Origin: a virus
Taxonomy: Duplodnaviria > Heunggongvirae > Uroviricota > Caudoviricetes
DNA: 64,000 nucleotides
IMG/VR virus record: IMGVR_UViG_2718218360_000002
Reading direction: 5' to 3' (one strand)
The first letter of the stretch is position 1, and every line of letters begins with the position of its first letter. Of this stretch, positions 30,001 to 33,000 are shown one piece after another. The position numbers were made by a program.

Positions 30001-33000
30001 TTTACTTTCATTTTCTGTCGGCGGTGACGGAGACATACATCAGATGGAAAAAATCACAACAGGTGTGTCATACACCACGTCAGCGGTAGGGACGGGATAC
30101 TGGTTACTGCAACTGCTGGACAAAGTCTCTCCGTCCCAGTGGGTGGCAATAGGTGTACTGGGGAGTCTGCTGTTTGGCCTGCTGACGTATCTGACAAATC
30201 TTTATTTCAAGATTAAAGAAGATAAGCGTAAGGCTGCGAGAGGTGAATAATGTCGCCGTCATTACGCAAGGCTGTTGCAGCTGCTATTGGTGGTGGGGCT
30301 GTTGCCATAGCGTCTGTGCTCATCACTGGTCCAGGTGGTAACGATGGTCTGGAAGGTGTCAGCCACATACCATACAAAGATATCGTTGGCGTATGGACTG
30401 TATGTCACGGACACACCGGAAAAGACATCATGCCCGGTAAAACGTATACCGAAGCAGAATGCAAAGCCCTCCTGAATAAAGACCTTGCCACGGTCGCCAG
30501 ACAAATAAACCCGTACATCAACGTCGATATACCGGAAACAACGCGCGGCGCTCTTTACTCGTTCGTTTACAACGTGGGCGCTGGCAATTTCAGAACATCG
30601 ACGCTTCTTCGCAAAATAAACCAGGGCGATATCAAAGGCGCATGTGATCAGCTACGGCGCTGGACATACGCTGGCGGTAAGCAATGGAAAGGGCTGATGA
30701 CTCGCCGCGAGATTGAGCGTGAAGTCTGTTTGTGGGGGCAACAATGAGCAGGGTAACCGTTATTATCTCCGCTCTGGTTATCTGCATTATCGCCTGCCTG
30801 TCATGGGCTGTTAATCATTACCGCGATAACGCCATTACCTACAAAGCGCAACGCGATAAAAAAGCCAGTGAGCTGAAGCTGGCGAACGTGACAATTACTG
30901 ATATGCAGGTACGCCAGCGTGATGTCGCTGCACTTGATGCCAGATACTCGAGGGAATTAGCCGATGCGAGAGCTGAAAATGAAACTCTGCGTGCTGATGT
31001 TGCCGCTGGTCGTAAGCGCCTGCGCATCAACGCCAACTGTCCAGGCTCCTTGCGTAAAGCCCCCATCACCTCCGGCGTGGATAATGCAACCGGTCCCCGA
31101 CTGGCAGAAGCCGCTGAACGGGATTATTTCATCCTCAGAGAACGGCTGATGGCAATGCAGAAGCAACTGGAAGGAGCACAGGAATATATCCGTACCCAGT
31201 GTATACCGTGATGTTTTGTTATGAAGGTGTTACTGGTAACGTTAAGGTAATTTAACAAAGAGTCAGTTCCGGACTTTATAGTGTGCTCAGTTCATGGACA
31301 AAAACGATTTCTGTGATAAATATTTTGAATATTATTTACAGGTAAATGGAGTGGGGCGCATGGATAGAAATATTACAATAGAGTATGAAGTATATGCCCG
31401 TATTGTATGGGCAGAGAAGGCAAAAACACGGTAATTCCGTGTGTTGCCATGATACCTGATTGGCAGAATAGTTGTTTGGTTTTGAGTATATAGTCAGCGT
31501 TTTTTGTTCAGTAATTGCCCCCTCAAAAAATAATAAAATAAGGTGATTATTTTTGTTTATTATTTAGTTTTTTTGTGTGTTATTTTATTGTTTTTGCGTG
31601 GTTTGTTTTTTATTGTTATTTCATTAAGGGAAGGTAAATTCAGGATGGCAGTCTGTAGATAATCGGAGGTCACTTATGCTACATGATCACGTGGCAGAAT
31701 GTCTGGAGAAAAAAGGACTGTACCGGAGAGCAGCTGAACGATGGGCAAAAGTGATGGTACAGCTAAGTGATGACCAGAAAAGAAAAGTGGCGGCACAGAA
31801 ACGAGCAGAGTGTTTGCGTAAGGCGCGCCGGACTCCGGTTTCACCGGTGAACCTGACCGAAATAAAACAAGCGGTCAACAGACTACATTCTGAGTTGGGA
31901 ATGGGATTTGAAGAGCGGCGGGTATTCCGACGATATAAAGGGACAGGAGAACAGAATACGTCCGGAAACGCGCGGTCAAAAAAATGCTAAAAAATATCTG
32001 AGAGAGTTATTGCCTGTTACCATAAGAAAAAGCGACTTTAGTGGTCGCTTTTTGTGTCATATATAAGTCGTTTAAGTAAACCTGTCTGAACAGGTGCTCT
32101 GGTCGTGTTTGTCTTTGTTGGGTACAAATTGAGAATATTTTTCATTAATTAATCTTCTTCTGCAGGCTTCAATAACCCACGCTGAAAAATTACCTGAACC
32201 TTTCTGGTCAAGAGCGATGTTAATTTGTTCAATCATCTGGTTTGGAAATCGGATGTTGCGGGTTGTTGTTCTGCGGGTCCGGTTTTTCGGTGACATTTTC
32301 TTTCCTCTGGTGACAAGCTATATGGCGAGGATTTTACATGGCCGTGCTTCGTACGTTACCGGGCAGAATCAAAACTCTGAATACCCGGCGGGTGAATGTC
32401 CTGAAGGGGGAACAGCGTCGGGTCAGTGGCAGTGCCCGGGTTTCCCTCAAGCGTCGTATCTGGCTGAGGGATGCCGGACAGTGCTGTCTCTGTGGGCGTG
32501 TGGTTGACCTTTGTGACAGTGAACTCGATCACCGCATTGCACTTCAGTTCGGTGGTGGTAATGAGGAGACGAATCTCTGGACGCTCTGTACCGAATGCCA
32601 TCGCCAGAAGTCAGTCAGTGAAACGGCGAGTGGTATGCCGGACCCGACGCTGCCGGAGGTGTCCGGAGGTCATGGCAGGGCAGACGATATCATCGGACTG
32701 TGACCCGCCCCGGGGGGGGATCATCCGGCGAAAAAACGATCGCCCCGGACACCGCCCCCCGTCTCATGCAGAGAAAAAATTCCTGTTTCAGGCCAGTTAA
32801 CATGTTAACTGGCTGCCCGGGCATTTTTTCGGTTTTTATCTTTATTATTCAGTTTGTTGTGCGAAAAAAATGTTAACTGGCTTTTTCAGCAAATGTTAAC
32901 CAGGCAGCAGTTAACATTTGCGGCATGAGATGCCGGGAAAAATGGGCTGAACCATACCCGGCTGAGTGCGTTCTGGACCCGGGAGGAGGCTGTGCTGACA

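Follow-up and report, generated by a model that had tools for sequence, protein, structure and literature searches.

What is the function of the GTTAAC-containing repeats that crowd the gap between an HNH endonuclease gene and the small terminase gene (terS) in IMG/VR virus record IMGVR_UViG_2718218360_000002, a 64,000-nucleotide stretch of caudoviricete DNA (hereafter, the window)? An earlier note on this DNA had drawn attention to a 22-bp palindrome and an inverted repeat with 12-bp arms in the gap, and had offered three options: binding sites of the small terminase protein (TerS), the cleavage region of the cohesive-end site (cos), or operators for a ribbon-helix-helix-like protein encoded nearby. 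The first of these is the best supported by sequence comparison: the repeats are probably a cosB-like part of cos that is recognised by TerS, because of their position relative to a mapped cut, the selection that acts on the motif, their retention by satellites, the switch of motif that accompanies a changed TerS helix-turn-helix (HTH), their deep conservation, and the apparent SF6/SPP1 type of that HTH.

Both repeat features of the earlier note are present as claimed, according to reading of the sequence and a repeat search, but a fifth copy of the motif (AAAATGTTAACTGGC at 32867-32881, in the extent given by the repeat search) had been overlooked. Exact ATGTTAAC occurs seven times in the window (both strands), and five of the seven copies lie inside 122 bp (32796-32917; Poisson P = 7e-15 for at least five copies in 122 bp, against a background rate set by the remaining two copies). 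Over the whole window the hexamer GTTAAC shows no enrichment (15 found versus 12.2 expected), so the enrichment at the gap is local, and the repeat cluster is not a product of chance. The parts of the site are as follows:

32704-32791, unstranded: conserved cos core block, with a C4G8 run, GATCGCCCCGGACACCGCC, the cut site and the A-tract GCAGAGAAAAAATTCC

32753-32762, unstranded: cosN overhang placed by homology, CGCCCCCCGT, a 10-nt 3' cohesive end, with the top-strand nick at 32762/32763

32792-32813, unstranded: sites 1 and 2, GCCAGTTAACATGTTAACTGGC, a perfect 22-bp palindrome (100% complementarity in the repeat search)

32814-32867, unstranded: spacer between sites 2 and 3, 54 bp, AT-rich and rich in T-tracts, of kept length and loosely conserved sequence

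32868-32881, plus strand: site 3, AAATGTTAACTGGC, a lone half-site in direct orientation

32889-32921, unstranded: sites 4 and 5, GCAAATGTTAAC-CAGGCAGCA-GTTAACATTTGC, an inverted pair with a 9-bp spacer

The repeats thus span 32792-32921, on the terS side of the cut (+30 to +159), with half-sites at +34 to +155. Sites 1 and 2 consist of GCCAGTTAACA followed directly by TGTTAACTGGC, which are two inverted ATGTTAAC half-sites that touch each other and lie at +30 to +51 from the nick; the 12-bp arms of sites 4 and 5 (GCAAATGTTAAC, 32889-32900; GTTAACATTTGC, 32910-32921) are separated by 9 nt and are also 100% complementary in the repeat search. The order of orientations is minus (site 1), plus (site 2), the 54-bp spacer, plus (site 3), plus (site 4) and minus (site 5). 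All oriented half-sites can be written A(A/C)ATGTTAAC, with 3' flanks that are partly common (TGGC, TGGC, TGGC, CAGG and TGCT).

Two minor observations concern the motif itself. ATGTTAAC carries ATG in one frame and TAA in the next, which creates a chain of short open reading frames (32802-32876, 32870-32899 and 32893-32928), each with its stop inside the following repeat; the chain is probably a by-product, its lengths not being kept in two other loci (L029 and L030). In the early region, 17 kb from cos, another GTTAAC pair with the 8-bp spacing of sites 1 and 2 (15632-15645), plus a TTAAC, is found within GACGTTAACCAGTTAACAATTAAC (15630-15655); it is without the AT flank of the cos half-sites and may be due to chance.

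Mapping of the genome ends of an inducible relative, which the earlier note had proposed as a check, can be read from published data. Database records of this phage group are for the most part excerpts of prophages. Phage Lys8385Vzw (MT225100), by contrast, was induced before sequencing, and was classified by PhageTerm as a cos phage with ends that are 3' cohesive and with CGCCCCCCCT as the cos sequence at the genome end (PMC7946995). Its record ends with GGACACCGCCCCCCCT (last bases CGCCCCCCCT), 59 bp past the HNH stop codon, and restarts with CTCACGCAGAGAAAAAATTCCC (CTCACGCAGAG). Lys8385Vzw is ~97% identical to the window, and its cohesive end corresponds to window positions 32753-32762, 30 bp upstream of the first palindrome; the cut position in the window is assigned by this homology. 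An independent IMG/VR contig (L101) begins with TCTCACGCAG, 1 nt from the mapped end. The published ends therefore fall within the gap, as the option of a cos cleavage region would have it, but outside the palindromes: with the cut 30 bp upstream, the palindromes are not the cleavage site, and instead fill the stretch that separates cosN from terS, where lambda has its cosB. The cos core block is kept from E. coli to Salmonella, Atlantibacter, Kluyvera, Enterobacter, Erwinia, Serratia and Pantoea, and in satellites of either TerS type described below; the gene order HNH-cos-terS-terL is likewise the same in most relatives.

Conservation of the repeats in homologous prophages, also proposed as a check, is pronounced. 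A scan of IMG/VR for GTTAACATGTTAAC, together with other loci, yielded 41 unique E. coli versions of the segment from cosN to site 5. The inner 14 bp of sites 1 and 2 are the scan pattern, so that their invariance is uninformative; at sites 3-5, none of 24 columns varies among the 41 variants, versus 57 of 148 columns overall (hypergeometric P = 2e-6). The most divergent copies (L030 and L114, two of the satellites described below) are 77% identical, and none of their 43 mismatches falls in the motifs (P ~ 9e-5). Variation starts at the conserved cores or a few bases beyond them, and both the flanks and the spacer vary: in site 3, AAAAATGTTAAC is invariant in 41 of 41 variants and the following three bases vary; sites 4 and 5 keep an invariant core, AAATGTTAAC/GTTAACATT, and their three outer pairs break without compensation; in the palindrome of sites 1 and 2 the bases just beyond the inner 14 bp are nearly invariant and the outermost vary. 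The outer palindrome bases differ in inducible phages (GGGCAG...CTGGC), and the conserved palindrome is only the inner 18 bp. The spacing from one GTTAAC to the next is 8, 68, 23 and 15 bp in 33 of the 41 variants and within 1-2 bp of these values in the rest, despite the diverged spacer sequence; between sites 2 and 3, where many spacer columns vary, 37 variants have 68 bp and the others 66-69 bp. The repeats are under motif-specific purifying selection with conserved spacing.

The array is also kept in mobile elements that have no terS. An IMG/VR element of ~11.7 kb (L114, 1-11730) encodes an integrase, Ash, DUF4222, a D5-type primase, SSB and an E-type capsid protein, and carries cosN and all five repeats at its far end, with no terS, HNH or DUF3950 gene (DUF3950 being the family of the ribbon-helix-helix-like protein). 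An element in the complete genome of E. coli Ec-042-T5-MAC (L030, beside clpS) has a protease/capsid fusion gene, with cosN and the five repeats at its end, and is likewise without terS, HNH and DUF3950 genes. A RepA-helicase satellite of E. coli GPEC1186 (L031, 2500-2740, beside fis/dusB), again with no terS, has after cosN ATAAACATGTTTAC, an AT-rich spacer, ATGTTTAC and three GTTAAC copies. All three look like satellites that copy the packaging signal of a helper. Retention of the array in these terS-less satellites argues that the repeats belong to the packaging signal, and argues against roles that need a downstream terS; the array acts in cis, independently of terS coding. In L031, a 317-aa protein is encoded after the array.

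Other satellite-like elements, with a primase or AlpA context, encode TerS proteins of their own. Two of these proteins (P0061, which begins MALTTKKKRFADA, and P0053, which begins MAMTARKRRFADA) have KGWQL instead of the KGSQL of the family (S38W in the HTH), and P0061 represents 243 member sequences, indicating that this type of TerS is common in E. coli. Their elements keep the cosN core, and the overhang of L024 is CGCCCCCCGT, identical to that of the window. In the KGWQL-type satellites (L024/L025 and L032), however, AGTTACA (AAAAGTTACA) repeats in four to six copies replace most of the ATGTTAAC copies. In L032 (1740-2040), the stretch from cosN to terS holds four AAAAGTTACA copies, two of which form the perfect inverted pair AAAAGTTACA-CGA-TGTAACTTTT, and a fifth copy lies inside terS, while the homologous spacer is still recognisable and one ATGTTAAC copy remains at the position of site 3; L024/L025 (1400-1990) have six copies, two upstream of terS and four within it. 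The TerS protein P0032, which has the KGSQL HTH, is accompanied by the inverted pair ATGTTTAC-AGGGCAGCA-GTAAACAT, from which the half-site may be written ATGTT(A/T)AC, and L026 has the geometry of sites 4 and 5 in the form ATGTTTAC-N9-GTAAACAT. cosN and the A-tract are constant whatever the type of TerS, and the repeats alone follow TerS.

Deeper relatives place the same motif in and around the start of terS. A scan of genome contigs with a single TerS protein gave no confirmed relative, and a contig scan with a TerS alignment gave 19 loci; the 18 loci from 12 other genera (Atlantibacter, Enterobacter, Kluyvera, Erwinia, Phytobacter, Kosakonia, Serratia, Rouxiella, Pantoea, Citrobacter, Buttiauxella and Entomohabitans) were examined alongside Salmonella phage FSL SP-016. 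An HNH homologue is encoded in 17 of the 18, being 58-69% identical and upstream of cos in 14 of them and 31-34% identical in Erwinia, Serratia and Rouxiella; none was seen on the one truncated contig. The relatives all have a short gap, in which the cos block is followed by terS ~33 nt past the cut. The start of terS lies inside the near-palindrome GTAAACATGTTAAC or a close variant in nearly all of the 18 loci and in FSL SP-016, two loci (L015 and L016) having a perfect TTAACATGTTAA at this position and another (L022) the mirror form GTTAACGTGTTTAC, where terS starts with GTG and its second residue is Phe. Site 2 of the window (32802) is therefore the probable ancestral start position of terS. 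The lineage of the window has ~185 extra bp and its terS now begins GTGCTGACA; the E. coli arrangement clearly appears to derive from a rearrangement of the 5' sequence of terS.

Within terS of the relatives, at +205 to +230, AATGTTTAY-ACCCCAGCR-GTAAACA (N9) or a close variant encodes NVYTPAVN (16 of 18 loci) and has the geometry of sites 4 and 5 of the window, with 15-bp hexamer spacing. Among 16 distinct coding sequences, 77 codons are comparable (invariant amino acid, degenerate codon), of which 23 are codon-invariant; the seven codons that build the sites (TTA, a rare Leu codon, ACA, GTT, ACC, CCA, GTA and AAC) are all invariant (P = 1e-4), which indicates a constraint at the level of DNA within terS. 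TerS of these relatives may bind its own start region, with autoregulation as a possible consequence.

A mechanism in accord with these observations can be proposed. The window TerS has its PF03592 match in the N-terminal domain only, gives weak matches to the DNA-binding domain of SF6 TerS (4zc3, 2cmp and 3zqp; E 0.18-0.73), in line with an SF6/SPP1-type N-terminal HTH DNA-binding domain, and has an HTH that is highly conserved across the family. The oligomeric protein would recognise ATGTT(A/T)AC, a half-site that is offered five times from +34 to +155 first as two abutting inverted copies, then, past 54 bp of AT-rich spacer, as a lone copy and as two inverted copies 9 bp apart. Multivalent binding, with the DNA probably bent or wrapped over the spacer, would bring the large terminase (TerL) and its HNH partner to the cosN core, which lies 30 bp upstream; TerL would cut at cosN (32753-32762), and packaging would proceed rightward, through terS, terL and the head genes.

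The element is ordinary in kind and not a new system. The cosB of lambda, composed of the sites R3-I1-R2-R1, lies between cosN and the small terminase gene and is bound by gpNu1, which reads it with an N-terminal HTH. The array resembles it in its short repeats in both orientations, its position between cosN and terS, the spacer that joins distant sites and the proposed HTH reader. It differs in having no sequence similarity to lambda cosB, in being paired with 10-nt 3' overhangs and an HNH partner versus the 12-nt 5' overhangs of lambda, in the PF03592 type of TerS as opposed to the Nu1 type, in that two of its three units are a tight palindrome or an inverted pair, and in the spacer, which has no IHF consensus: WATCAANNNNTTR, with up to one mismatch allowed, has no match in 32704-32991, and the best candidate, ATTCAGTTTGTTG, has two mismatches. 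HK97 has a 10-nt 3' cohesive end, and Kala et al. reportedly described in 2014 a role of the HNH protein in its packaging. The window shares with HK97 the order HNH-cos-terS-terL, a 3' cohesive end of ~10 nt, a nearby A-tract and TerS recognition, as proposed here, a few tens of bp past the cut. In HK97, TerS recognises one 15-bp site, which lies +15 to +29 from the cut and is threaded through the tunnel of the ring (Chechik et al. 2024, PMC11331095), whereas the window offers five candidate repeats over ~125 bp and an SF6/SPP1-like HTH. Membership of PF03592, the weak matches to the SF6 DNA-binding domain and the idea of multi-site recognition are in turn points of likeness to SF6 and SPP1. 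In these headful (pac) phages of Bacillus, several HTH domains on a G1P-type ring contact repeated boxes; the window differs in its precise cos cut and HNH partner. No description of cosB in this phage group was found in the literature searched, which reports the cut site alone (PMC7946995); other literature on cos in such prophages concerns the lambda-type cos of Sp4/Sp14, and the phi330 paper is silent on termini.

Several points weigh against recognition of the array by TerS, or against details of the proposed mechanism. The half-site spacings are not multiples of the helical turn; the absence of an IHF site leaves a lambda-like bending model unsupported in detail; the overhang of the mapped relative differs by 1 nt from that of the window (CGCCCCCCCT versus CGCCCCCCGT), and the window prophage has a frameshifted portal gene. 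The co-variation amounts essentially to one specificity switch, in two related satellite TerS lineages, and satellite retention shows a cis function in helper-dependent packaging, not which helper protein binds. Lastly, TerS might make its main contact, or an additional one, at the A-tract (+9 to +23, the region that corresponds to the HK97 TerS site), and the repeats might have an accessory role. A related explanation, which we consider unlikely, is that the repeats belong to cos and are read by a protein other than TerS, such as TerL, the HNH protein or host IHF, Fis or HU, with TerS on the A-tract. The A-tract (32771-32785) is indeed invariant in the E. coli variants, is kept in all relatives and lies where the HK97 TerS binds, and satellite retention fits any trans-acting helper factor; but the A-tract is also kept in satellites with diverged TerS, where the repeats switch with the TerS HTH, and cosN, the target of TerL and the HNH protein, is unchanged in the same satellites. 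The region has no IHF consensus at up to one mismatch, and the HK97 TerS is of a different type from PF03592 TerS, so its binding mode need not transfer.

The remaining alternatives take the repeats out of packaging altogether. A role in RNA, as terminator, attenuator, processing hairpin or leader-peptide coupling to terS translation, might be suggested by the folding of RNA 32780-32930 at -41 kcal/mol (z = -2.1), the T-runs after sites 2 and 3, the short reading frames from 32802 to the site-3 TAA and from 32870 to the site-4 TAA, and the overlap of the palindrome with the terS start codon in relatives, but we judge it very unlikely. Such a z-score is expected of any palindromic DNA, all arms are one sequence, which pairing alone does not require, and a hairpin was rejected because the covariation score among 11 diverse variants is not above shuffles (149/500) and outer pairs of both stems break uncompensated, with just the identical cores retained; a leader peptide or attenuator was rejected because the reading frame is 24 codons long in the window, 14 in L029 and 4 in L030, and the array persists at satellite ends where no terS follows. 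In 31900-33300 a scan gave two terminator-like sites and one promoter-like site, which does not exceed the number in shuffles, and the terminator-like match near the array has a stem of only 5 bp (32817-32832). The third option of the earlier note, operators for the DUF3950 (YlcI/YnfO) protein, here extended to any other phage regulator of the late or head operon, is highly improbable. It draws on the habit of ribbon-helix-helix proteins of binding short repeated or inverted sites, on the presence of the DUF3950 gene together with the long-gap array in those E. coli phages that were looked at (L027-L029), and on a weak sigma-70-like match built from the motif on the minus strand. The distribution of the motif led to its rejection, however: the motif is missing from the 41 bp upstream of the DUF3950 gene (32297-32337), the array being ~500 bp off across the HNH gene; 18 relatives that have no DUF3950 homologue within 2.5 kb carry the palindrome and inverted pair, as do satellites that lack such a homologue; and the motif co-varies with TerS and not with the DUF3950 gene. 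Promoter-like matches are no commoner than in shuffles. The array might, finally, be a functionless remnant, the ~185 extra bp having arisen by duplication or rearrangement of the 5' end of terS (ATGTTAAC = Met-Leu-Thr) and the motifs being decaying relics. Such an origin is plausible, ATGTTAAC being the terS start in all non-E. coli relatives, with the inverted pair inside their terS, but loss of function is contradicted by the conservation pattern, is disfavoured, and is likewise highly improbable: relics should decay along with their flanks, yet the motifs are invariant while the flanks vary, the spacing is kept, the array is retained in satellites at 77% identity, and synonymous sites of the motif are frozen within coding sequence.

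If the repeats are TerS recognition sites, this E. coli prophage family may have a modular cos, in which a shared cosN core (for TerL and the HNH protein) is joined to an exchangeable multivalent cosB code (for the TerS HTH); we put this forward tentatively. Known packaging strategies of satellites include mimicry of helper cos (P4 and cos SaPIs) and a satellite TerS (SaPI TerS-S) (cf-PICI preprint). L030, L114 and L031 resemble the former in copying the helper cosN and repeats; L024, L025 and L032 resemble the latter in encoding their own TerS with its own repeat, as read here from sequence alone. A cos-type satellite that pairs helper cosN with a switched cosB and its own TerS was not found in the literature searched. 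With a modular cos, satellites would use two opposite ways, exact copying of the five ATGTTAAC or a kept cosN with most sites rewritten to AGTTACA and the matching S38W TerS, and their own AGTTACA/TerS pair would privatise packaging in a cos system. Sites in the start and coding sequence of terS would couple packaging recognition to terS expression, with autoregulation possible, and the E. coli lineage would have moved the sites out of terS into a dedicated non-coding array. The most interesting by-products of the analysis are these two ways of packaging a satellite and the placing of TerS sites at the start of terS and within its codons. The pairs ATGTTAAC/KGSQL TerS and AGTTACA/KGWQL TerS offer a natural test of how SF6-type small terminases read DNA. 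The module is found in Stx1-, Stx2a- and Stx2c-converting phages, and the cut site and likely TerS code would help to explain which defective prophages and satellites of the O157 prophage pool can be packaged by which helpers; GGACACCGC, followed after ~40 bp by GTTAACATGTTAAC, can serve as a sequence marker of cos and genome orientation.

The gene context is as the earlier note described it, with the HNH gene ending directly before the cos block and a gap of 288 bp before terS. The neighbouring genes are:

31676-31990: PerC-family regulator gene (PF06069, E = 4e-44)

32072-32296, minus strand: the DUF3950 (YlcI/YnfO) gene, 74 aa (Pfam)

32338-32703, plus strand: HNH endonuclease gene (PF01844, E = 2e-6; 'HNH endonuclease' by PGAP on the identical sequence of FRIK2455)

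32992-33555, plus strand: terS, small terminase, with a GTG start (PF03592 at residues 2-57, E = 1.7e-8)

33552-35213, plus strand: terL, large terminase, with ATPase and nuclease (PF03354, PF20441)

35277-37214: prohead protease-major capsid fusion (Pfam)

The HNH protein presumably assists the terminase as an accessory nuclease. E. coli O157:H7 FRIK2455 matches the window at 100% identity; the window is 93-99% identical to Stx1a-, Stx2a- and Stx2c-converting phages (1717, 2851 and BP-4795 among them) and to vB_EcoS_phi330 (PV189401; genus Pankowvirus), and its TerL is 100% identical to that of phage 2851 and 99.8% identical to that of phi330. Of 5426 complete E. coli genomes, 1283 carry the segment comprising the gap and the 5' part of terS, at 3237 places in all and in as many as 9 copies in one genome. 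The packaging module is of the HNH-assisted, 3'-overhang cos type, in a Stx1/Stx2c-type lambdoid prophage of E. coli O157.

The PerC-family and DUF3950 genes sit between the lysis cassette and the HNH gene, and may be cargo or regulatory. The portal gene is broken (window 37426-38777, continuing to ~40005): just the C-terminal half of PF04860 is found, in an open reading frame at 38088-38777, and PGAP annotates the identical gene of FRIK2455 as 'phage portal protein, frameshifted'. The window prophage probably has a defect in head assembly, although its cos, terS and terL appear intact. Several 'PPompW' prophage records become similar to the window only from ~32715 on, in the C4G8 run (~32712-32719), where an IS110-family insertion sequence, ISEc20, is annotated; the insertion sequence therefore separates the HNH gene from cosN and is ~38 bp away from the cut.

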